64,000 nt of DNA from Octopus vulgaris (Eukaryota), in assembly GCA_951406725.2 (NCBI GenBank), contig OX597835.1, positions 23,312,001-23,376,000 on the forward strand, written 5' to 3'. The position numbers were made by a program, and so were the translations under genes. The notes beneath the pieces are model-generated. The model was not told the DNA's origin. It saw nothing but the letters and a program-made list of their open reading frames with translations, and searched no databases. Shown here in pieces: positions 7,810 through 61,261 of this stretch (position 1 is the stretch's first letter; the number at the start of each line of letters is the position of its first letter).

Positions 7810-9723
7810 CAGCATGAATTTGAACAGTGCATAGCAGCCAATCCTGACAGCAAGGTTTTCTGGAAATATGTGCATTCGAAGCAGAGACCTCACTCTCCAG
7901 TGGACCCTCTTCGCAACCCTCACACAAGCCAAATCCCTGACGATCCCAAGGAATGCGCAGAACTCATTGCCGAGTGCTATGCAAGCATATTCACTGTTGA
8001 AAATCAAAATGTACCATCTTCACCATCTCTAACAGCAAATTCCATAACAACTATGGAATTTACACCTGCAATGCTGCAACGTCACCTTCAAAATAAGCAC
8101 AACTATGCCTCCCTTGGTCTTGATGGCGTTACATACCTGCTTCTCAAACGTGGCAGGTACTTCCTTTTACACCAGCTTTCTATTTTTTTCCAGTACTGTC
8201 TCAACAATGGTACTACTCCGGAGCAGTGGAAAACCACCAGTGTCATTCCTCTGTTCAAAAAGGGCGACCGCACATCACCTGTCAACTATCGCCCAGTCAG
8301 TCTCACTAGGTGTATTGCAAAACTGATGGAATCGTGTGTCAGAGAAACACTTTGGAACTTCTGGAGCTCTCACAGTCTCATCTGACCCTCACAATATGGA
8401 TTTGTCCCAAACTCCAGCTGCACTGATCAGCTTGTCGAGTTCCTTGAGGACATTACTCAGATCACTGACAGTGGCTCATGGGTGGATGTTGTCTACCTTG
8501 ACTTTGCTAAGGCTTTTAATTCTGTGCCACACAAAAGGCTTATGGTGAAACTCTCTGCAATGGGTGTGAGGGATGATCTTTTTAACTGGTTGAAATCCTT
8601 CATTCTCAGCCGAAAGGAGGTAGTCACAGTTCTAGGACAGCATTCTACACCATATGAGATGTCATCGGGTGTACTACAGGGATCTGTTCTTGGTCCCCTC
8701 TTGTTTGTGACATACATTAATGACATAGATGCCAATTTAAAGAATGCCACGGTATTGAAATATGCAGACGACATCAAGCTGTACCTTGAAATCAAGAGGA
8801 CAGATCCTGATGTCTACAACTCTTTCCTGCAATCAGACTTGGACACAATGCAGCAATGGATCACAGACTGGCAACTGAAACTGGCTGTGGACAAGTGTAC
8901 CACCATGCATTTTGGGAGAAAAAACCCTGCATCCACATACTTCCTCCACAACACTGATATCAAGAAATCCTCTTGCGAGCCTGACCTAGGCATCACTGTC
9001 AGCAGTGATTTGCGTTGGACAAAGCATATCTCTAAAATTGCCAAGAAGGCCGAGGGTGTCTTGGCATCACTCAGCAAGACTTTTGTTAGCCGCTCTCCAG
9101 CCATCTATTTAAAGCTGTATACAGCTATGGTACGACCACACTTGGAATTCGCATCATCAGTTTGGAACCCCTATCTTGCTCAGAATATTGACCTCCTGGA
9201 ATCTGTTCAGAGACGTGCAACCAAATGCATACCCTCCATCAGACACCTACCGTACTCTGAGCGCCTTGTTTCCCTGGGCATGGATTCACTGAAGCTCCGG
9301 CGTCTGGTGATGGACTTGGTAAACACCCACAAAGTTATCAACCACCTCACCAACAACAACACTGAACACCTTTTTGATCTCCATGTGTCCAACACACGTG
9401 GACATGCCTACAAAGTCAGAAAACAGCACAACTCCCATGACTTTCGGAAACATTTTTCCACGCTCAGAGTTGCTAAAGCATGGAACAAACTGCCTGCGTC
9501 AGTTGTTGACTGCCATGACACTGCATCCTTTAAGGCCCTCATGCTTTCTGAAATCCGCCGAAACTACACCTGATTGTCCCCCTTCCATACTCATACACAT
9601 ATGTGTATGTCATGACCCATGCACTGTTCTTTTCCTGACGCTTGCACATTACCCTATGTACTATACATACATTTTAGATGAGTTGTAGTGCACCTGAGCA
9701 CTGTACACAATGTTTTATTATTT
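7810..9723 (+). mobile_element. 5'-truncated CR1/L2-type LINE, RT pseudogene (in-frame TGA at 8383-8385)
   Basis: NYRPVSL, YLDFAKAF, QGSVLGPLLF and YADD motifs, with a (TTA)-type tail. 3' fragments of the same family at about 4126-4465 and 62400-62672. Confidence 0.9.
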
Positions 9724-36899: not shown

Positions 36900-39800
36900 A
36901 CTCTAGAATATCTGTATTTCTTTCCTCTACCTAATTACGTTACTCAGTGACGATAACGAATGTCCACTGCTAACACCAGCTCCTGCCCACGGCGTGGTCA
37001 GGTTGGAAGAGAGATCAAAAGAAAAATACCACGATAACTATCACCACCACAACAACCCTCCTCTTCTCAGGCGCCGAATCCCCCCCGTCCCCCCACATCT
37101 CCTTCCCAGTTTTCAGAGTTGGCACTATCAATGTTGGTACATTGACAGGCAAGTCTAGTGAGATTGTAGAGATGCTAGAGAGAAGACAGGTTGATGTATG
37201 CTGCATACAAGAGGTAAGATGGAGAGATGCTTCGGCTAGGGTCCTCACGGGCAAGGCACTTAGGTACAAACTCTACTGGCAAGGTAACGCGGAAGGTGTA
37301 GGGGGTGTAGGCATTCTCCTTGCGGAGGAATGGGTGGATAAGGTCATAGAGGTTGTCAGGGTTTGTGATAGAGTGCTTAAGCTCAGGTTGGTCCTACAGA
37401 GTGGCACAGCTATGATTATCTCAGCCTATGCCCCACAAGCGGGACTACCAAATGATCAGAAGGACAACTTTTATGATACCCTTCTGCAGGCTACTTCAAA
37501 GACTAGTAACAAGGACCTCATCTTTGTAGGTGGATATTTTAATGGGCATGTTGGGCGGGAATCGGGTATCTTCACTGGGGTACATGGTGGCTATGGTATT
37601 GGCACCAGAAATGATGAGGGAACTAGACTGCTGGAATTCTGTGATGCATGTAACCTTTCAATCTGCAACACTAACTTCAAGAAGCCAGTCTGCCACCTTA
37701 TAACTTATCAGTCAGGAGACTCCGCTAGCCAAATAGACTTCATCCTCACCAGACAACGGGATGCAGGGTTGCTCTTGAATACAAAGACCCTCCCGGGTGA
37801 AGAATGTATCCCTCAGCATAGACTAATCATCAGTGACTTTAAGCTTGAGGCCAGAAGGACTCCAAGAAACAAACCAATCCAGAAAAGAAGGATTTGGAGG
37901 CTAAAGAACCCTTCGCATGGTCAGAAATTTAGGGACATACTCATCAAGAAATTTGATGAGAGGGAGGAGGAGCTTCAGACGTCAGACATAGAAGGTAGCT
38001 GGGAATTCCTACGGGACAGCTTGTTGAGTGCCACAGACCAAGTCTGTGGATGGTGCAAAGTCCCTTCCAGACCTAGAATTACGTGGTGGTGGAATAGTGC
38101 AGAAGATAAAGCCATCTGTGAAAAGAGACGGGCCTGGAAAGCCTGGAAGGATGGGGGCAGCAGGGAACTGTACCAGATAGCCAAAAGGGAGGCTGGGCGG
38201 CAGGTATACATTGCCAAAGATGTAGCAGAAAAGAAGAAGTTTGCCAGTGTCCAGCGTCGCGAGGATCAAAGAGCTGAAGTATTTCGGATTGCCAGACAGT
38301 GTGTCAGAGAAAATAGCGATGTTATAGGAGAGAAATGTGTCCGCATGGATGATGGGGCACTTGCTTTTACTACTAGTGAAAAGAAAGAGGCTTGGAGAAG
38401 CCATTATGAAAGACTGCTGAATGAGGAGAATGAATGGGAGGAGGAGAGCCTGCCAAATATTGACCCAGTAGAGGGACCAGCTACCCGAATAGACAGCTCC
38501 CTTGTAGATAAGGCAATTAAGGATATGAAACCAGGCAAAGCCCCTGGCCTATCAGGAATCACTGCTGAGATGCTTAAAACAGCTGGCTATGTGGGCTATG
38601 CCATAGTCACCCGCATTGTAAACCAGGTAGTTCACAATGGAGTCATACCCAATGACTGGTGCAGCAGCACCATAGTCAACTGCTACAAGGGTAAGGGTGA
38701 TGCTCTAGATAGAAATAACTACAGAGGTATCAAACTGTTGGACCAGGTGATGAAGGTCTCAGAGAAGGTCATAACCAATCTCATTAGGGAGAGAATTTGT
38801 TTAGATGAAATGCAGTTCGGTTTTGTACCAGGTAGAAGCACCACTGATGCTATATTCCTGGTCCGATAACTGCAGGAGAAGTACCTAGCTAAAGATAAAC
38901 CCCTCTACATAGCTTTTGTAGACTTGGAGAAAGCCTTTGACAGGGTTCCCCGTTCCCTTATCTGGTGGTCGATGCGGAAACTGGAGATTGAAGAATGGCT
39001 AATAAGGGCTGTACAGGCTCTATACAGAGAGGCTGTCAGCAAGGTTAGGATTGGCAACGAATATAGTGAAGAATCCGGGTAGAAGTAGGTGTGCACCAGG
39101 GCTCAGCCCTCAGTCCCCTTTTATTCATCATAGTCCTTCAGGCAATAACAGAGGAATTCAAAACGGGATGCCCCTGGGAGCTCCTCTATGCCGATGACCT
39201 AGCTCTCATAGCAGAATCACTACCGGAACTAGAAGAGAAATTTCGGGTGTGGAAGCAAGGGTTGGAATCAAAGGGCCTTAGAATAAATGTAGCAAAGACC
39301 AAAGTATTAGTAAGCAGCAAGAGGTACTCAGCACACATCCCCTCGGGTAGGTGGCCCTGCTCAACCTGTAGGAAAGGTACAGGTAGAAACTCCATAAGAT
39401 GCACCCAATGTAAGTTATGGACACATAAGAGGTGCAGCAACATTAAAGGGAAATTAACAGATAAGATAGCTTTCATGTGCGGCAGATGCACAGGGACAAT
39501 AGACACAACAGACACTCAGAAAACAGATTCCATCACACTCCAGGGAGAGAAACTAGAAGTAGTTGATAGTTTCCGCTACCTGGGTGACCAAGTTAGTAGC
39601 GGAGGTGGATGCACAGAGAGTATCACCACTAGAATACGAATAGCCTGGGCAAAGTTCAGAAAGCTCCTACCCCTACTGGCAACAAAAGGTCTCTCCCTCA
39701 GAGCAAAAGGTAGATTGTATGATGCATGTGTGCGAACTGCCATGCTTCACGGTAATGAAACTTGGGCTGTGACTGCAGAAGACATGCGTAGACTTGAAAG

Positions 39801-40525
39801 AAATGAAGCTAGCATGATCCGCTGGATGTGTAGTGTCAGTGTGCACGCAAGACAGAGTGTAAGCATCCTGAGAGAAATGCTGGATATAAGAAGCATCAGA
39901 TGTGGTGTGCAAGAGCGACGCTTGCGATGGTATGGTCATGTGCTGCGGATGGATGAAGAGAGATGTGTGAAGAAGTGCCACTCCCAAACAGTTGAAGGTA
40001 TCAGGGGGAGAGGTAGACCCAGGAAGACATGGGATGAGGTGGTCAAGCATGACCTCAGAGCATTGGGCCTCACTGAGGCAATGGCGAAGGACCGAGATCT
40101 CTGGAGATATGCTGTGACTACAAAGACCCGGGCTGCTTTCTGCAGCAATTCCACATACCCCCTACCCATTCTAAGTACCCCGGATCCCCAAAGTACCCTG
40201 GATCCCCAAAGTACCCCGATCCCCAAAGTACCCCGATCCCCAAAGTACCCCGGACCTCGTTGCCCCCGTGCCGCTGACACGTTAAAATGCTCGAACCGAT
40301 CGTGACCGATGTCGGACCCTCCGGCCCCTGTGCAGGTGGCACGTAAAAAGCACCCAATCCACTCACAGAGTGGTTGGCGTTAGGAAGGGCATCCAGCCGT
40401 AGAAACTCTGCCAGATTCAGACTGGAGCCTGGAGCGGCCCCTGGCTTCCCAGACCCGGTCGAACCGTCCAACCCGTGCTAGCGCGGAAAGCAGACGTTAA
40501 ACGATGATGATGATGATGATGATGA
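36900..40525 (+). mobile_element. Near full-length RTE-clade LINE (APE endonuclease, RT, PHD-like finger), inactivated
   Basis: RVGTINV, CIQEVRW, SAYAPQ, IDFIL and QHRL (APE). NYRGIKL, DLEKAFD, QGSALSP and YADD (RT). TAA at 38867-69 and a frameshift near 39075. (GAT)n tail. The 5' boundary is uncertain. Confidence 0.92.
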
Positions 40526-42825: not shown

Positions 42826-42874
<49 letters not shown>

Positions 42875-42875
<1 letters not shown>

Positions 42876-43281
42876 TAGCAGTATCGCCCGGCGTTGCTCG
42901 GGTTTGTAAGGGAATTAACTATATAAGCATTTTTAGAGAAATGCGTACACCTGTTGGCGTCCATGGTTACGCCTACACCTGTGTTGCTTCTCCCCCTTCT
43001 TCCCTCTCTCGTGAAGCTGTGGGGAAGGGAGTGTAAGGGAAATCAACGTCGTAAAGCGTTGTCAAGGAGACCAGCGTTCTTTTAGAACAACGACTTCATG
43101 GCTTCAAGACACCAAAACAGAAAATGTCTACGATGAGTCAACGATTTAAAAAAAAATTTACCATAAATTTTTTTCTGTTTTCAATGCATTTTTTTTTGCT
43201 ATTTTTTGGCTATAACTCTCTAAAAATGCTTATATAGTTATTTCCCTTACAAACCCGAGCAACGCCGGGCGATACTGCTAA
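42875..43281. mobile_element. Helitron-derived element with two outward-facing 3' ends
   Basis: About 65-bp inverted ends, both matching the 3' terminus (hairpin + CTAG) of the Helitron at 61262-61642. Confidence 0.7.
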
Positions 43282-43445
43282 TATATATATATAGAATGGT
43301 TGTATACTGTCAATCTAACAAGAACGTGACAGTAGGGGGTACACCACCGCTGTATAGCCCTAGGAAGCATCGAACGCCTCCTGATGGCTTGGACACATTT
43401 TTCCCTGTGTCCTTATATACATTTACGAAGGGGAGACAAACACCC

Positions 43446-43530
43446 CCGGCTGCCGGAACTGCATCTAGGGACACGTGTTTCAGGATCGTTGTCCTTCATC
43501 GGCCTAGAGTAGCAGACACCGGTCAGCCGG
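43446..43530 (-). ncRNA. Type I hammerhead ribozyme with extended stem I, predicted cleavage between 43470 and 43469
   Basis: UCUAGG-CCGAUGA-AGGA(CAACGA)UCCU-GAAA-CACGUG-UC^CCUAGA. Stem I extends via CUGC/GCAG, CCGG/CCGG and CCGGCUG/CAGCCGG. U4 is replaced by C. Confidence 0.8.
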
Positions 43531-43729
43531 TGATATTATATCTTTATTATGGGCACGATGGCCCGAATGCAGAGGGGACATTACAAGACGGGACGTGGGG
43601 TACATAAAGTAAAAAATAAAATATGAAATGAAGATGAATTATGTGTAATGAGTTGGATGGAACGGCTTACGAGCCCCCCAAAACTCGCAGTTTCGTTTAA
43701 AATACAATTTTACATTTTAACATTACATA

Positions 43730-45019
43730 CGAGGGGCGTTCAATATGTAATGCCCCTGACCCACTTCCCATAGCAGTAGAGCAACGAAACTTGGCACAGT
43801 TATTAGTCTTTTTCTACCTAGGAACCACCCAGAGTTACGCATTTCTCTCATCGTGTGATGCAGCTCTGGAGACCGTTTTTGTAGAAGACCCCAGCTTGGT
43901 CCTTCAACCACGACGTGACTTCAGAAATCAAGGCTGCATCATTTGGAAAACACTTTCCTTTCAAAAACAACTTCATGGCTGGGAAGAGGTGAAAATCAGA
44001 GGGTGCAAGGTCAGGAGAGTAGGAGGATGGGGGAGGAGTTCATAGCCGCACGCCTGTGCTTCTGATCTGGCGACAGCGAGTTGTGGACCGGAGCGTTGTC
44101 CTGCAGGAGGAGGATGCCTTTGCTGATCTTGTCCCGCCTCTTGATTTTGATAGCTTCTCTTAATTTCCTCAAAAGTGAAGCATAATATGCTCCTATAATT
44201 GTGGTACCCTTTGCCAGGAAATCTATCATCACTACTCCGTCCTGGTCCCAGAAGACTGTGAGCATGACCTTGCCAGCGGAGCGCTGCACCCTTGCCTTCT
44301 TTGGAGGAGGTGAGTCACGGTGCTTCCACTGCATTGACTGGGCTTTGGTCTCTGGATCATAGTGATGGACCCAGGTTTCATCCTGTGTAATCAGTCTTTT
44401 GAAAAAATTTGACTCATCTTCTTGGCATATCCCCAAATTCATCCTCGAGCACTCAAAGCGTTCTTGCTTCTGGAAAGATGTGAGCAACCTGGGAATCCAT
44501 CTGGCAGACACCTTTTGCATATGCAAATTGTCATGAATGATAGTTTCCACAGACCCGGTACTAATCTTGACCTCATGGGCTATTTGGCGAATAGTTATGC
44601 GTCGATCTTCCAAAATGGCAGCCTCAACTTGACGGACAGATGCCTCATCAATGGAAGAAGGGGGCGACCAGATCTGGGAGCTGTTTCCACAGAGTTCCGA
44701 CCATGTTTGAATTCATGATGCCAGCGTTTTACAAGGTCATATGATGGGGCATCATCACCATAAGTTACTTTCATTTCATCAAAAGTCTCCCGTGGTGTGC
44801 GTCCTTTCAAATATAAAAACCGGATCACTGCTCGACACTCAACAGGCTCCATTTCACACTTGACTCAGTTCAAACACCTGTAAATCTGAAACCACAATTA
44901 GTTCAGAGCTGTAATTTTCCCCTTAATCTATAGAGATATAAGCAATTGCACATGCAAAATTTCAGCTAGATCAAACAATTGCAAGTAGGTCAGAGGCATT
45001 ACTTATTGAACGTCCCTCG
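43730..45019 (-). mobile_element. Mariner transposon, 1290 bp, frameshifted DD34D transposase
   Basis: TA TSDs at 43728-29 and 45020-21. TIRs cgaggg.cgttcaata.gtaatgcc. Motifs WIPRLL, TQDETW, LQDNA and YSPDLAPSD, with ATG at 44852. Confidence 0.95.
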
Positions 45020-45034
45020 TATATTCCAGTTCTT

Positions 45035-46396
45035 TTATATTGGACGTTCGTCCGTCATATACTCTATCAATTCCATCTGGTCTATCACATTTGGCAAATT
45101 GTCATAACGTACGTATTGCGCTACATAAACAGCATTAAATATCCTTTTCAATTTTGTAAATGTCTCTTTTTCTATAACTACCCCTTTCACATTGTCACCA
45201 TACAGTTTTGGCAACTTCACCCTGTTCAATACTTTCCTACCTGCAAGTCTTTTTTCCACTTCTGTGTCTTTGATATACATCACGAATGCTTTCAGGTTTT
45301 TTCCTACAGGTCTTCTTCCCTTTTTACAAGCTTCCAACTGCTCTTTCACTTTTGTCTCCCATTCTTGGTCAGCCTCTGTCATTGTCTGCTCTCTCGCCTT
45401 CTCTTTTACTTCCTTGTCTTTGCATGTTCTCTCTTCTTTTTCTTCTGTTATCTTGCTTTTGATTTTTTTCTTTTTTAGAACTTTCGGTGGTGATTCCACC
45501 CTTGTTCTCTTCCTATCTTCTGTTCTTTCATCCTCTGCACTTGCACGTTCTTCTTCCACATCCTCAATTAGCTGCTCCTCCGTTTGCGCTTCCACTGCTT
45601 TCGTTTCCTCCTGCACTTCTCCCTCCTCCACACACGTATCTTTCCACTCCTTCGTTACAGCCTCCGGTGCTATCGTTTTCTCCAGCGGGCACACATCCTT
45701 CATGTGGCCTCTTAATTTGCAATTATAACAGACTGGGGGTCTTCCCTCTACCACGACTCTAAACCGTGTCTCATCAGGGAAGACCAACTCCTCCGGGATG
45801 TTGTACAGGTCTGGCATGGTTATATGTGCCAGAACCTGCACCGCATATCCCCACCATTTAACTTCTGTTGACTTCTCCACCTTCAACACTTCTACACTTT
45901 CCTTGCAGTTGAAAACTACTGCCGCTAATATCCTCTCCATGTTAAGTTCGGGCGAAATCCTACTAATTCTTATTCTGACTGCCCTCTTTCCGCAGTAACT
46001 AGGTAATAAAGTCCAACTTTCAGATTTCAGAATCTTTGTCGCATTCTTTCTTGCTTCATTTTCATTTTTAAAGTGTACCACCACTGTGGCATATTTCCAT
46101 CCTCTGTTGAAAAAGGTAGGTTCACCCTCAATTCCTTGCAGACATTTCTCTATTTCTTCCGTCTCTGCTACTTCTATTTTTCTTGACGCCACACACCATG
46201 TCCTGTATGTTATCATACGTTTCTCCGCATTGTTTTCTTCTTCTTCGGACGGTGTGACTCTCACGCAGTTACCCTCCCACTTCAAACTGTCGAAATATTT
46301 TTCTAAAGTCTTCTTCTCGACTACCACTTCTTCCATTTCTAGTTCACTCGCAACCAGGCCTCTGCCTGCTGCTCTCGCATACGTCTGGTCTTGCAT
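45035..46396 (-). CDS. LINE-ORF1/Gag-like nucleic-acid-binding protein (453 aa from the first ATG): RRM-like region, CCHC zinc knuckle, E/K-rich tail
   Basis: Uninterrupted ORF with an N-terminal TYARAA motif, VVVEGRPPVCYNCKLRGHMKDVCP (CX2CX4HX4C) and a basic RKR...KKKKIK patch. Confidence 0.85.
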   Translation of the reverse strand: MQDQTYARAAGRGLVASELEMEEVVVEKKTLEKYFDSLKWEGNCVRVTPSEEEENNAEKRMITYRTWCVASRKIEVAETEEIEKCLQGIEGEPTFFNRGWKYATVVVHFKNENEARKNATKILKSESWTLLPSYCGKRAVRIRISRISPELNMERILAAVVFNCKESVEVLKVEKSTEVKWWGYAVQVLAHITMPDLYNIPEELVFPDETRFRVVVEGRPPVCYNCKLRGHMKDVCPLEKTIAPEAVTKEWKDTCVEEGEVQEETKAVEAQTEEQLIEDVEEERASAEDERTEDRKRTRVESPPKVLKKKKIKSKITEEKEERTCKDKEVKEKAREQTMTEADQEWETKVKEQLEACKKGRRPVGKNLKAFVMYIKDTEVEKRLAGRKVLNRVKLPKLYGDNVKGVVIEKETFTKLKRIFNAVYVAQYVRYDNLPNVIDQMELIEYMTDERPI

Positions 46397-46793
46397 TTTC
46401 AAAATCTCCGACTCCAAAAAACATAGGTCGGCTGGTGATATTTGCTTCGACTTCACTATTGTATATATCTATATTCAGTGAAGTCTATTCACTGATTATC
46501 AAAATAAGAAATATTGAATTTCTAAATCTCTCGTAGAGACATGTACGGTGGTGGGGCGATAGAATGGTTGTATACTGTCAATCTAACAAGAACGTGACAG
46601 TATGGGGTACACCACCGCTGTATAGCCCTAGGAAGCATCGAACGCCTCCTGATGGCTTTGACACATTTTCCCCTGTGTCCCTATATACATTTACGAAGGG
46701 GAGACAAACACCCCCGGCTGCCGGAACTGCATCTATATATATATATGAAAAAACAAGTCAAGATAGAAAATGCTAAAATAATTTTATAAAGAA

Positions 46794-56558: not shown

Positions 56559-59500
56559 TCAGCTTCGACGTGTCTGGCCTGCAACAGCAGTAGCAGGCTC
56601 TTCCATCTTAATGTCATTTTCATCTTCGTCTTCACATTTCGAGGCTGCTAGTCTTGCTGATTTAGTTCTATGTCGGCCGGGTGTAATGTTCCAAACCTTG
56701 TTTGCCTCAGGGATCCTTAAAGGAGAACTGAGGTGGATGACATTCTCAGCATTGTCTTGCAGTGAATTTAAGCTTGTCGACTGAAAAGATGTATTCCTTA
56801 AACTGTTTGGGGAGTTGTGCCGAATGGGGGAAGGTGGCGTCAGACTAATGTTTTGGTCGGAGTGAAATGTGACATTTTTAGACCTGCTGGCAACAAATGG
56901 AGTACTGATAGCACGGTTCATATAATTCTGTTCATCCGAACTGTTTATGACATCCTGTTTTGATTTTGAAGAATTGTTTGTAGAGCTGTCAGAACTCATT
57001 CTAAGAGACTGCCTCTTTTCTCCATTAATTTGCTGAAGTCTTTCAATTGATTTTTTCGCAGAATTCAAAATTGCTTTCTTAGATAAGGAAAGGGTTTCTA
57101 AATTTCTGCCCGGCTTTACAGCAGAAACAGGAACTTGGTTTGAGTTACGATTGTTATTCACATCATCAAATTCTTGCTCAGGAGAAGGAGATTTTTGAGC
57201 GATTTCTTGTTGTTCTTCATTTTCTTTTTGTTGCTGCTGCTGCTGCTGTTGTTGTTCTTCAAACTTACGTAAATCAAATTCGATTTCATCAGCAAGTTGC
57301 TTGTCCGTACCAAGAATCTGTTGAATTTCACTTTTGAAATCTTTAATGAGTTCTCGGAGATACAACATCAGCTCTTTTAACACTGGAGACCGTTTAGTTT
57401 CTAAGACAAGTTTTAGTGACGTAACAATCGGAACTATATTTTCTATCAAATTTTTCTTCATCACTTTTGAAATAAGATTTTTGTTCATTTTTGCAATAAC
57501 AGCAGCAGCCATTTCCTCTTCGTCCATGTTACCTTCATTTTGTTTGTTGACAATTAAAGATATTTTGATTTCTTTACTACCAAGGATGGTTAAAGAATCC
57601 TGCAACACTGTAGTTCCGTCTTCATCAAGTTCAATGATTCCATCAACAACTCCTGCCAGGATTTCCTGATTCAGTTTTCCAGATAAGTTGATTTTATGCT
57701 CATCAGTCATGTGTTGAAGCATAAAAGTGTAAAGACGCCACCGTAGATCAAATTTGGATCTTCCACGTAGATCAAGGCTGTTTTTGTTGTTTTGATCTTG
57801 GGTAAATCTGTTATACATCGGATGTTTCTGGTAACGATTGAAGTAAAAGATGCATTCAATAAAATGATAGAACATGATGTTTGGATTACGAACCAACAGA
57901 CAATGAACAAAGCAAAACTCGGAGAACTTTTGCAGTTCTATTTGTTCATCTAAGTAAGTTGTGATGAAACGATAGAACAGTGGACCTTTCCATTTCAGAT
58001 AATCTTCCTGGATGAGCATGGTGAGTAACGTCATGGTTTGTTTCCTGATCAAAGGAGAAACGTCATTGAGACATGTTGCTACCTTGGGAATATACTGATC
58101 GACAAGGGTAGTGTATCGTATACACAGGTCACACAAAATAAAGACCACATTGTTGCGGATGGCTTCTTCTGATGATGTTTCCAATTCTCGTACAAGTGCT
58201 GCAACACACTTTTTTGCAAGATCTTCATTCTGAAGACAGAATTTTCCGAGTGTAATGAATGCATGCCCTCTCACACGACTGCTTAACTTGGAACCGGCAA
58301 AATGAAGCAAAGTTTCATGATTTTTACCTGACTTTGTTTTAGATAAATTATCAAGACCATTTGTTTGGGAGGCGACTGATCCTTGGGAACATTTCAATAC
58401 AAAATCCGAAATGCAAGGAGAAGCAATGATGCTCTGTACTACTAACAAAATATGTTTGATGGGATATGCTGGATGAAGTTGACAAACTTCTCCAAGAGTA
58501 AACAAATGACAAATAACTTTTTCTTCGTCAACAGCAGTATTTTCTTTTTCAGACAAAATTAATTTGGATAAATATTTATCAGAAGCTTTCAGAATGTCCT
58601 GGCATAACGTTTTCAACTTGTTTTTCTCAAATTTATTGTCTTCAGTTAGTTTCTTAATGGTTGCCATAGTCATAGAAATTAAGTCGATAGGAGAACCGAA
58701 TTGCAACAAACGCTTGCTGAGGTCAGCTACAAGTTTTTGCTTCTCTTCAAAAGGCACTGATTCAGCCACATTCAATAAAACTTTCAAAACATATTTACAA
58801 GTTGATGTACTCTCATTGCCACTATCTAATGAACAATTTTCATTCCAAAACTGAACTACAAAAGAGCAATCAAATTTTACTTTTGCAGTTGAAAGTTCTG
58901 AGAGCATCATCCAAGCTGCATTGTTATGTTCAGTACCTACGTGAGTTTTAAGCACATTGATGTGAAACACTTTGATCAGTTTCAACCTTGCCCACTGGCT
59001 AACAGCTCGTTGGAAATATCGCCGAAGGCTTTCTTCCTCTTCTCCGGCCATTATTTGTAATAAACTCCATGTCAACTGGTACTGACTTGATAGAGACCTA
59101 TTATATGTACACAGATTCTGAAGGAGGACTTCTTCGAGGCACTTCATGCATTTTTCTTGTAAAGTAGTTTCACAATCCAAAATTAAAGGTAAAACTCCAT
59201 TAAGCCAAGCTTTCTGAATTAAATAGCATGTTGGTAAATCAAATAGAAGGGAGCTGAGCGACTGCATAGCTTGCTTCCGAACAGACAAAGATGGGTCTCG
59301 GCATCTTTCCTCCAAAATATTTACACCCATTTGGCAGTCGTTCTGCAGCAACCGTACAAGACTTTCAAAAGCCTGAAGAGCTGATTTCCTCACAAAAACT
59401 TTTTCATCTGATGATCTCCTTTTAAGCATTGAAAGAACACCATAATTATCAGAAAGATTATTATCAACAGGACTAAAATCCAAGTTGACAAACGGTGTCT

Positions 59501-61088
59501 GTCCAGTGAAGACAATACCTTGATTAGGAGTTTTATTATTTTCAGAGTCTGAAATTGGAGTCACATTGTCAATTTCTAAATTTGGAAGACTTTCTAAATT
59601 TGAAGGCTTGCTGTCATATTCTTCATTTTGTGGCGTAAACAAACTTTGGCACGCATTTACAACTTTTTGATTCCTCGACCCTACACACTGGGAAAAGATT
59701 ACAATTGCTCTTGAACGGACTGATGAAGAATTGTCGGAACAGCGGTCAACAACGTAACCGATATAATGCTTATGTTTTAAATATTCTTGTAGATCGGCAG
59801 GAACATCCACTGACTCTATCTCAGTTTTCGAAAGCAACAACGAAAAAATTTCAAGAGCCATCATTCGGTTGTTAGTTTTCGAAGTACTTATCAACACACC
59901 AACCCATTTTATCATTTCGGCATAACTGGTTTTGTCAAAAGCATCCATTATAGTCAAAATAGATTCTGCCACTTTGCTTCTATAATCTGTTTTGTCTGGA
60001 GTTTTAATACATAAATGTTGAATTAAAGTCCTAGCAGACTTCATTGCTGAATCTTTGTGCTGATGAAGAATGTCACATATAAATGAAATAGAATTCAGTC
60101 GGCATTGAGCGTAAGCAACAGGAATTGTTTGGGAGAAAACCACTTTGTTATTGAGGCCAAGCATTAATATGCTGCTCATTAGTTGTTTGTAAACAACGTT
60201 GATGATGGCAGCTGAGTTACCTTGAAAGCCGGAACATAACTGTTTTAAGGCAACATACGCCAACTCGACTGGATACTTGGCGGTGGAAGCAGTAAACGTA
60301 CGGTTAATATGATTGTCCAAACCTGCGTAGGGACGGATGAGTTCGGCCATAACTTGGATGCTTTTGTGAATTGAAGAATCGGATCCACGCAAAGAAAAAT
60401 TCTGAACAAGTTGAATAAAAGCTTTTAGCGCACTAACCAAGGCTTTCTGTAGGATAATGTTATCTTGCGGAGAAAGTTCCTCTCCGTCACTTTCATCGCT
60501 TCCTTCGTCCCCGTCATCGTCATCCATCTCGACCGAAGGATTTCTACCCAATTTACGATTTTTGGCGCGGTTACTCTTCTGAGAATTCTTTTGTGAGAGT
60601 TTACGTTTTCTGTTTGCGCCGGCGCTCGACGTCCACCTCCGCAAAACGTCCAGGCACGAGTTCAATAACATCGGGTTAAAAATTTTAAAAGCGCCACTAC
60701 CAGCAATGGATACGAGTTGAAAATAATTGCAAGAAGCCAACAGACCCGCATGTCTTTTTGTTGCACCCACCTTGGCTTTGGAAGAAGCAGATTCTATCAA
60801 ATACGCCAGATAAGCGATGAAATGTTTATAGGAAACATCACTTTCGACCAGAACAGTCCAAAAACTAACCTCGTTTGTTTCTCTGTTTATCCAGCAATCG
60901 AGCGAAGACTGAAGTTTAAGCAGATCTTCGATGTAGAAGTTGCTCTCTTCTAAATCGATTATCAAATCCTCCGGAACAGTGTCTAATTCAACGAAATCTT
61001 TTTCCCATGCCGACTTTACCCAGCTATCTTCCAGTTGATCAAGAGGCAAATCGTTTAGAATCGCGATAATTTGTTCGATGCCCGCCAT
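56559..61088 (-). CDS. NCAPD3: Condensin-2 complex subunit D3 (HEAT-repeat protein), single-exon ORF, 1509 aa
   Basis: Motifs RC.DPSLSVRKQA, HAFITLGKFCLQNEDLAKKCV, IRNNVV.ILCDLCIRYT.LVD.YIP, EDYLKWKG.LF and HFIECIF.FN.Y.KH, plus a disordered C-tail. First ATG at 61088. Confidence 0.95.
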   Translation of the reverse strand: MAGIEQIIAILNDLPLDQLEDSWVKSAWEKDFVELDTVPEDLIIDLEESNFYIEDLLKLQSSLDCWINRETNEVSFWTVLVESDVSYKHFIAYLAYLIESASSKAKVGATKRHAGLLASCNYFQLVSIAGSGAFKIFNPMLLNSCLDVLRRWTSSAGANRKRKLSQKNSQKSNRAKNRKLGRNPSVEMDDDDGDEGSDESDGEELSPQDNIILQKALVSALKAFIQLVQNFSLRGSDSSIHKSIQVMAELIRPYAGLDNHINRTFTASTAKYPVELAYVALKQLCSGFQGNSAAIINVVYKQLMSSILMLGLNNKVVFSQTIPVAYAQCRLNSISFICDILHQHKDSAMKSARTLIQHLCIKTPDKTDYRSKVAESILTIMDAFDKTSYAEMIKWVGVLISTSKTNNRMMALEIFSLLLSKTEIESVDVPADLQEYLKHKHYIGYVVDRCSDNSSSVRSRAIVIFSQCVGSRNQKVVNACQSLFTPQNEEYDSKPSNLESLPNLEIDNVTPISDSENNKTPNQGIVFTGQTPFVNLDFSPVDNNLSDNYGVLSMLKRRSSDEKVFVRKSALQAFESLVRLLQNDCQMGVNILEERCRDPSLSVRKQAMQSLSSLLFDLPTCYLIQKAWLNGVLPLILDCETTLQEKCMKCLEEVLLQNLCTYNRSLSSQYQLTWSLLQIMAGEEEESLRRYFQRAVSQWARLKLIKVFHINVLKTHVGTEHNNAAWMMLSELSTAKVKFDCSFVVQFWNENCSLDSGNESTSTCKYVLKVLLNVAESVPFEEKQKLVADLSKRLLQFGSPIDLISMTMATIKKLTEDNKFEKNKLKTLCQDILKASDKYLSKLILSEKENTAVDEEKVICHLFTLGEVCQLHPAYPIKHILLVVQSIIASPCISDFVLKCSQGSVASQTNGLDNLSKTKSGKNHETLLHFAGSKLSSRVRGHAFITLGKFCLQNEDLAKKCVAALVRELETSSEEAIRNNVVFILCDLCIRYTTLVDQYIPKVATCLNDVSPLIRKQTMTLLTMLIQEDYLKWKGPLFYRFITTYLDEQIELQKFSEFCFVHCLLVRNPNIMFYHFIECIFYFNRYQKHPMYNRFTQDQNNKNSLDLRGRSKFDLRWRLYTFMLQHMTDEHKINLSGKLNQEILAGVVDGIIELDEDGTTVLQDSLTILGSKEIKISLIVNKQNEGNMDEEEMAAAVIAKMNKNLISKVMKKNLIENIVPIVTSLKLVLETKRSPVLKELMLYLRELIKDFKSEIQQILGTDKQLADEIEFDLRKFEEQQQQQQQQQKENEEQQEIAQKSPSPEQEFDDVNNNRNSNQVPVSAVKPGRNLETLSLSKKAILNSAKKSIERLQQINGEKRQSLRMSSDSSTNNSSKSKQDVINSSDEQNYMNRAISTPFVASRSKNVTFHSDQNISLTPPSPIRHNSPNSLRNTSFQSTSLNSLQDNAENVIHLSSPLRIPEANKVWNITPGRHRTKSARLAASKCEDEDENDIKMEEPATAVAGQTRRS
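57228..57254 (-). repeat. Coding CAA/CAG tract (Q9) in NCAPD3
   Basis: Directly visible. Confidence 0.9.
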
Positions 61089-61261
61089 AGTTTGAATTCT
61101 AGCCTCGTTTTCATATCTCAACCGCTTCCCTTTCCTTTAGATTCGCTCCCCTGTTTCTCATGAGCCGCTTATACCGCTAAATAAAAACTACAGTTCGCTT
61201 TAAGATTGTCTCATAGATGGAAGTGTGAGGGGACAGCGGTTAAATTGCATATTAATTAAAA

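Follow-up and report, generated by a model that had tools for sequence, protein, structure and literature searches.

A LINE derivative carrying only ORF1, nested in a hammerhead retrozyme of Octopus vulgaris, from a group that likely targets promoter start sites

Anatomy of the locus

The window analysed here is a stretch of 64,000 nt from Octopus vulgaris (assembly GCA_951406725.2, contig OX597835.1, positions 23,312,001 to 23,376,000), and the locus of interest, read on the minus strand, combines a hammerhead ribozyme, a 453-aa open reading frame (ORF) and a mariner transposon with two 177-bp direct repeats of 98% identity. Two retroelements of different kinds meet here: a short non-coding repeat of the retrozyme class, which carries the type I hammerhead, and a derivative of a long interspersed nuclear element (LINE), which carries only ORF1 and is bounded by its own 16-bp target-site duplication (TSD). 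From the sequence relationships given below it is near certain that the ORF cassette is nested inside the retrozyme, and the LINE group to which it belongs likely targets promoter start sites. A previous, sequence-only reading regarded the whole as one element with a monomer of about 1.97 kb. The direct repeats, the ORF, the later mariner and the (TA)n on both sides are all present as it described, but the monomer is a non-coding unit of 363 bp and the cassette a separate, TSD-flanked LINE derivative. The duplication, the AATAAA end and a motif resembling a proximal sequence element (PSE) were absent from that reading.

Positions in Table 1 are those of the whole stretch. The 5′ junction of the retrozyme can be placed only to within 2 nt, TA being compatible with the (TA)n flank as well, and relative to the copy at L004 (L numbers denote loci) the ORF1-only element in the window has a deletion of about 91 nt in its 5′ untranslated region (UTR).

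Table 1. Features of the composite locus in the 64,000-nt window.
Feature	Position	Strand	Basis or remark
(TA)n, 5′-side target of the host retrozyme	46736..46746	.	Sequence; empty copies likewise end in (TA)n
Host non-coding retrozyme, left part, monomer positions ~3-296 of 363, including the first 177-bp repeat (46735-46559)	46442..46735	-	
PSE-like ATCAGTG, 57 nt upstream of ATC at 46439 (presumed start site)	46490..46496	-	Motif shared by U1, U2 and most U5 genes
TATA-like TATATACA, 28 nt upstream of the presumed start site	46460..46467	-	Alignment; putative
Target site, 5′ copy, ATATCACCAGCCGACC; apparently the RNA head of the donor element	46426..46441	-	2 mismatches to the 3′ copy
ORF1-only LINE derivative (HAL1/TRE5-A.2-like), ~1.6 kb minus mariner	43537..46425	-	
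ORF1, 453 aa, RRM-RRM-CCHC, charged linker and C-terminal alpha/beta domain (aa ~340-448)	45035..46396	-	Purifying selection
Mariner (Mos1-like), TA duplication, frameshifted transposase, in the 3′ UTR of the ORF1-only element	43728..45021	-	Mariner itself 43730-45019
AATAAA close to the 3′ end of the ORF1-only element	43543..43548	-	Terminal motifs common to the autonomous partner
Target site, 3′ copy, ATATCACCGGCTGACC	43521..43536	-	
Type I hammerhead of the host retrozyme	43464..43508	-	Core CCGAUGA 43502-43496; predicted cleavage 43470/43469
Second 177-bp repeat, 3′ part of the host retrozyme	43291..43467	-	Ends at one of two preferred 3′ ends
(TA)n, 3′-side target of the host retrozyme	43281..43290	.	

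The host retrozyme and its hammerhead

Searching the DNA with the hammerhead end recovered at least 72 matches (40 scored of 2111 candidates), most of them without the ORF side. The 363-bp period was seen in four loci, and the empty monomers sit in (TA)n and show partial tandems and inverted 5′ arms, so that the partial-tandem host of Penelope or retrozyme type proposed earlier is upheld. Penelope-like elements are described with partial tandems, 5′ inversion or truncation and a bias towards microsatellites (PMC8557442), and retrozymes as non-coding (bioRxiv 10.64898/2026.07.22.740005), in the portions of these sources available. The host repeat, a short type I hammerhead unit with Penelope-type insertions, resembles non-LTR (long terminal repeat) retrozymes also in being non-coding, while the composite in the window as a whole does not.

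The ribozyme in the window comprises stem I (UCUAGG/CCUAGA), the core CCGAUGA, stem II, GAAA and a predicted GUC^ cleavage site that precedes the start of the 177-bp repeat by 2 nt, as the sequence-only reading had placed it, and it is the single match to a strict hammerhead descriptor among 2324 window tiles. An Rfam search at E<=1 did not report it. By folding, the 121-nt hammerhead region gives a z of -3.35 and the 49-nt core by itself is unremarkable (z -0.97). The same core is common to the A and B retrozyme families; another family has UUGAUAA, which presumably keeps the hammerhead 3-8 pair. The type I assignment stands, while the palindromic stem III claimed with it is not general in perfect form, many copies being ACACGGUGU.

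Among 17 distinct empty loci (of 23; six duplicate or composite loci were excluded) the 3′ ends fall at monomer position 178-179 (8) or 234-235 (9). Their 5′ ends are scattered, none of the 17 lying within 6 nt of the cleavage site, and by eye about 3 of some 38 filled loci begin there; the supposed rule that copies start where the ribozyme would cut is not borne out. No autonomous Penelope partner of the retrozyme was found, and Penelope-like fragments near L062, L068 and L157 could not be linked to it. At L157 (1157-2182) a Penelope-like coding fragment without a Pfam match is fused directly to a 5′-truncated composite. The idea that the window copy is a deletion derivative of a Penelope or tyrosine recombinase element was rejected, as no such ORF lies between ORF1 and the element end. 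Contigs from four presumed-RNA runs contain the empty-site joints, which have no bearing on expression, start sites, cleavage or circles.

The ORF1-only element and its autonomous partner

Residues 21-240 of ORF1 are predicted to form two RRM-like domains (AlphaFold2 pLDDT about 95), and the Foldseek matches to the model are tandem-RRM proteins (E about 5e-5). The CCHC knuckle (aa 222-237) reaches a Pfam E of 0.064 for the window ORF alone, and a zf-CCHC match is seen in 17 of 51 homologues, in agreement with the domains first proposed. The C-terminal domain has a predicted fold (pLDDT 79) with only weak ferredoxin-like matches (best Z 4.6), no Atlas match and no profile match to the partner's C-terminus. 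The closest named homologues come from Octopus bimaculoides and O. sinensis, and the protein has at least 94 matches in the 2.8-Gb genome.

In all 93 copies with a C-terminus only 123-375 nt separate the ORF end from AATAAA, a span too short for a reverse transcriptase (RT), which is therefore absent from the ORF1-only copies, as had been expected. With a single ORF1-like gene, no ORF2 in any of the 93, a TSD and a LINE-type 3′ end, the cassette has the make-up of HAL1-type elements. Comparison of the first 252 codons with the window copy gave dN/dS of 0.09-0.29 (39 open copies with dS>0.3), 53 of 89 rows being open and used and 36 having stops or many gaps in the N-terminal part; these ratios indicate that ORF1 is evolving under purifying selection.

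A LINE of about 5.5 kb at the same site in L062 led to the autonomous family. Its ORF2 is a 1131-aa APE-RT-zfRVT protein whose best PDB match is L1 ORF2p (E 5e-66); having APE, RT and a C-terminal zinc domain, with L1 ORF2p as nearest solved relative, it belongs with the L1 superfamily. The partner's ORF1 carries a CCHC motif and is homologous to the window ORF1 (26% identity, E 2e-29), which confirms the earlier assignment of the latter to the LINE type. Common targets, two terminal motifs and mixed tandems connect the two families; over the whole 3′ alignment the score is only marginally above shuffles for L170 and not above them for L179. The earlier suggestion that RT is borrowed in trans thus has a candidate source, which the ORF1-only family probably uses. 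The partner likely belongs to the Tx1 clade, judging from general features of that clade; RT searches returned no named Tx1 reference.

The 108 3′ ends found for the ORF family adjoin several different hammerhead repeats as well as non-ribozyme targets, and each insertion has a TSD matching its own host, mostly of 13-21 bp. The strict descriptor is matched at 31 of 58 non-tandem ends of the main subfamily, at 0 of 32 of a poly(A) subfamily and at 6 of 19 autonomous ends; scoring the failing ends with a looser core pattern gave 51 hammerhead-adjoining ends. The poly(A) subfamily is nested within the ORF tree (support 100/99), and a run of at least four A after AATAAA occurs in 25 of its 34 copies versus none of 62 PSE-type copies. 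Several ORF1-only families less closely related to the window ORF (30-41% identity) form clusters at L063, L064 and L069, stacked behind one TATA-containing repeat.

Nested elements rather than a single element

On the tree of retrozyme A, filled and empty copies interleave, with 14 changes of label, 7 of which starred branches force; the 3′ part of the window retrozyme groups among young empty copies, and the inverted arms of most filled loci include the site in its unfilled form. The ORF, earlier tied to one hammerhead monomer, occurs also in other hammerhead families and at TATA targets, and the monomer is common without it. The row nearest to the window ORF (98%) sits in a B-type repeat, and target class changes 22 times on the ORF tree (minimum 8; shuffled mean 58). 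Separate host families, individual TSDs and interleaved trees thus argue for nesting and not for one element. Among the 51 hammerhead-adjoining copies, 36 have a PSE-bearing left half, 8 are tandem and 7 odd. Three of the odd copies differ in form: at L034 an inverted repeat is fused inside the ORF, at L133 a 229-bp inverted repeat (98%) is fused in the 5′ UTR and no PSE is present, and L160 adjoins (TA)n with a left half lacking the PSE. These three may reflect a Penelope RT copying read-through RNA, so that the composite is occasionally retro-copied whole, although deletions could mimic this. The notion of the composite as a mobile unit may to this extent be kept.

Target position

Two of the 19 autonomous 3′ ends adjoin a full-length U2 gene at nucleotide 1 (the downstream U2 corresponding to Rfam model positions 1-192), and one more 5′ end and one more 3′ end provide further junctions at this nucleotide. 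The motif ATCAGT is present upstream of the U2 insertion sites and of the hammerhead targets. Its distance upstream, counted from +1, is 57-61 nt in 28 of 29 U2 loci that lack an insertion (the exception is a 5′-truncated copy), 57-59 nt in 20 of 20 U1 loci and 55-59 nt in 7 of 10 U5 loci (one more with a mismatch), and we take this motif, by analogy, to be the octopus PSE. Among main-subfamily ORF1-only insertions, 40 of 42 have the motif 53-66 nt before the duplication, and among autonomous insertions 13 of 14 have it 58-60 nt before the target start, the background for the same motif list being 88/6734 (1.3%). A new set of 20 autonomous 5′ ends, drawn from matches to the partner's 5′ UTR, comprised 15 with a PSE at 57-60 nt (two of them variants), three tandem, one truncated and one U1-headed, that is 15 of 16 informative insertions; among 20 new 3′ ends, 14 adjoin a hammerhead core, one a degenerate core and one U2, and four have no identified target.

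The PSE was found in none of 12 poly(A)-subfamily insertions, and all 8 rows chosen from this subfamily, representing about four target families, have a TATA box 28-31 nt ahead of the duplication. Compared over their first 14 nt, seven targets agree at 2-9 positions; a fixed spacing to a promoter element across unrelated target sequences, as in TRE5 elements, is what these insertions display, and the property common to the targets appears to be position, not sequence. The nicks lie at about -3 and +14 relative to the start site of small nuclear RNA (snRNA)-type (PSE) units. For U2 the targeted positions are the start sites, and for the other targets they presumably are so as well.

None of the insertion targets that remained without a name was named by Rfam. 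Five of them (L107, at G000:C4:98706851, L257, L258, L263 and L265) have neither a hammerhead nor an Rfam match and, given the start-site rule, may mark unannotated small-RNA genes or promoters. Immediately downstream of their 3′ ends the U2 genes at L182-L210 have a conserved motif in common, which is a candidate for the octopus 3′ box.

Several points weigh against start-site targeting. The hammerhead repeat families are mutually related, so that most of the 40 of 42 insertions cannot be counted as independent cases. Independent targets are provided by U2, with two promoter types and with 3 of its 4 sites located in a single C3 region, by one U1 head and by some four TATA target families. 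The motif list was picked after the sequences had been viewed, with two variants added for the new insertions, and the TATA rows were hand-picked, 8 being taken from 16. Sequence homing or co-mobilisation could cause the same clustering of target class on the ORF tree, and the 98% neighbour, with a B-type head on an A-type ORF, is possibly a recombinant. A weak (A/T)TC preference persists at the nick, an insertion is seen in only 1 of 30 U2 loci examined, the U1-headed copy has no upstream PSE, and the four new 3′ ends without an identified target belong here too.

Promoter borrowing and proposed mechanism

The 5′ site copy in the window differs from the 3′ copy at two positions, and this head variant was seen at none of 21 young empty sites but repeatedly precedes the T-run at filled loci, many of which have it. 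The U2 insertions carry a second, stacked head from a hammerhead repeat, and one copy is headed by U1 nucleotides 1-15. From such mismatched and stacked heads we infer that transcription of the element begins where that of its host does, and that the element RNA carries the initial ~15 nt of the host RNA at its front. In the window this RNA would start near 46439 and end near 43540, and the upstream 177-bp repeat and the hammerhead need therefore not belong to it.

The locus would accordingly have been built in three steps. First, the 363-bp retrozyme entered (TA)n as a Penelope-type copy of ~1.5 monomers, as its anatomy and the many empty copies show. An ORF1-only derivative of the L1 superfamily, probably of the Tx1 clade, then inserted at the retrozyme's presumed start site with a duplication of ~16 bp, putatively by target-primed reverse transcription with the APE-RT of the autonomous partner. 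Finally, the mariner entered the 3′ UTR of the LINE derivative. Sites would be chosen by position relative to a promoter, of snRNA type (PSE) at U2 genes and many hammerhead repeats, and one derived ORF1-only subfamily would insert 28-31 nt behind a TATA box instead. The element would be transcribed from the host promoter and carry the head to the next site. Nesting together with a start-site-targeting LINE group that borrows host promoters is, in our judgement, quite probable. As to how sites are found, the most likely route, to which we give about an even chance by analogy with TRE5-A, is that the ribonucleoprotein is tethered through ORF1p to the promoter-bound complex (TBP/SNAPc). The widest form of the proposal, for and against which the scales are about level, is a LINE lineage with long-lived ORF1-only satellites tethered to TBP/SNAPc preinitiation complexes, with retrozymes as a renewable promoter supply, a switch from PSE to TATA, and occasional travel with the ribozyme as an incipient protein-coding retrozyme.

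Alternatively, the cassette could be nested and yet guided by sequence, a relaxed APE acting on a short ATC-like motif with pairing of the head or a read-through tail to similar targets, and the promoter link would be a by-product, since copies at promoters propagate best. Most PSE-type targets do begin with ATC, target class is clustered on the ORF tree, and the specificity of the Tx1 clade is attributed to the endonuclease in the available part of PMC4494074. Against this, the spacing to PSE or TATA is fixed within a few nucleotides at targets sharing so few of their first 14 nt, the heads at U2 come from an unrelated hammerhead repeat, and nearly all copies, not the sources alone, stand at promoter-type sites; we regard sequence guidance as unlikely. 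Clearly less probable still is that the composite is a coding retrozyme mobilised as a unit by Penelope RT and that the window copy arrived whole. The inversions or truncations into or up to the cassette at L034, L133 and L160, the 19 ORF rows near that of the window, which are A1-hosted and have the common head variant, and the window 5′ end, 2-4 nt from the predicted cleavage site, would fit such an origin; but only 3 of 51 copies have this form, filled copies resemble the empty monomers at their own locus and form no clade, most inverted arms include the empty site, and the 5′ ends are not concentrated at the cleavage site. That the cassette is a decayed deletion product of a full LINE, its protein without a role, can practically be set aside, for although RT is lacking and 36 of 89 rows are damaged N-terminally, the 3′ UTR is uniformly short in 93 of 93 copies, the low dN/dS among ORF1-only copies largely refutes decay, and ORF1 shares only 26% identity with that of the partner and keeps a conserved C-terminal domain unmatched there.

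Other features of the window

A short MITE-like (miniature inverted-repeat transposable element) sequence at 42863-43293, with 77-bp inverted ends (97%), lies in (TA)n and directly adjoins the 3′ flank of the retrozyme. On the minus strand, 56562-61136 is an unbroken frame of 1525 aa with Cnd1 and HEAT matches, condensin D-subunit-like and apparently intronless or a very large exon. LINE remnants, an APE frame plus an RT with a PHD-like insert and a separate RT frame, are located at 36974-40302 (+) and 8386-9570 (+).

Comparison with known systems and significance

Known site-specific animal LINEs are explained by sequence recognition by the endonuclease, and position-specific LINEs are known from Dictyostelium at RNA polymerase III (Pol III) genes. 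Among literature titles and abstract openings no LINE targeting hammerhead repeats or snRNA/TATA start sites was found, Repbase, subscription papers and supplements being outside this scope and possibly holding such notes. The octopus repeat annotation of PMC13282606 gives 13 recently active L1-Tx1 families, and its main text has no ribozyme, snRNA or target term. The other comparisons refer to those parts of the cited papers that were available.

The closest counterpart is TRE5-A of Dictyostelium, which inserts ~47 bp upstream of tRNA (Pol III) genes and whose ORF1p is reported to bind TBP (PMC5391098, PMC6101501). Like TRE5-A.1 and TRE5-A.2, the octopus group pairs an APE-RT LINE with an ORF1-only non-autonomous derivative, is position- and not sequence-specific, and forms tandem insertions. 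Unlike TRE5-A, which inserts head-to-head and has its own promoter module, it inserts in sense at the start site of snRNA-type or TATA units and apparently uses the host promoter. Integration beside a transcription start via contact with promoter factors is also a feature of Ty3 and DGLT-A (PMC6101501), but those are LTR elements at Pol III genes and act via integrase/RNase H.

With Tx1-clade elements (Tx1L, Tx1-Mar, Keno) the octopus LINE shares APE-RT, a CCHC ORF1, a TSD of ~16 bp, tandems, and targets in transposons and U2 (PMC4494074, PMC4640811), and the available parts of these papers contain no hammerhead-repeat targets. After insertion of Keno or Utopia the remaining U2 begins at nucleotide 39 (PMC4640811), whereas next to the octopus insertions it begins at nucleotide 1, and unlike the Tx1 clade a single octopus family occupies many targets of unrelated sequence that have their promoter spacing in common. 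HAL1 (half-L1) is similarly a non-autonomous L1-type element with ORF1p only; it is described for mammals, with no target specificity mentioned in the available part of PMC5753468. A metazoan LINE at snRNA-type and TATA start sites would, if confirmed, represent a new targeting rule and a lead for promoter-guided gene insertion, and the natural switch from PSE to TATA would help to map the determinant.

The host resembles non-LTR retrozymes (PMC7229834): it is short, non-coding and equipped with a type I hammerhead, and its copies show the partial tandems and inversions of Penelope-type elements. For newt satellite 2 an snRNA-type promoter is cited (PMC2220036). In contrast to these described systems, several octopus families carry the U1/U2/U5 upstream motif and are parasitised by a LINE at the presumed start site. 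Used as start-site tags, the insertions suggest that several animal retrozyme families have an snRNA-type promoter, and the way in which retrozymes are transcribed thereby becomes directly testable. If this is true, retrozymes would constitute a renewable promoter supply, and the LINE would be a parasite of a parasite of Penelope.

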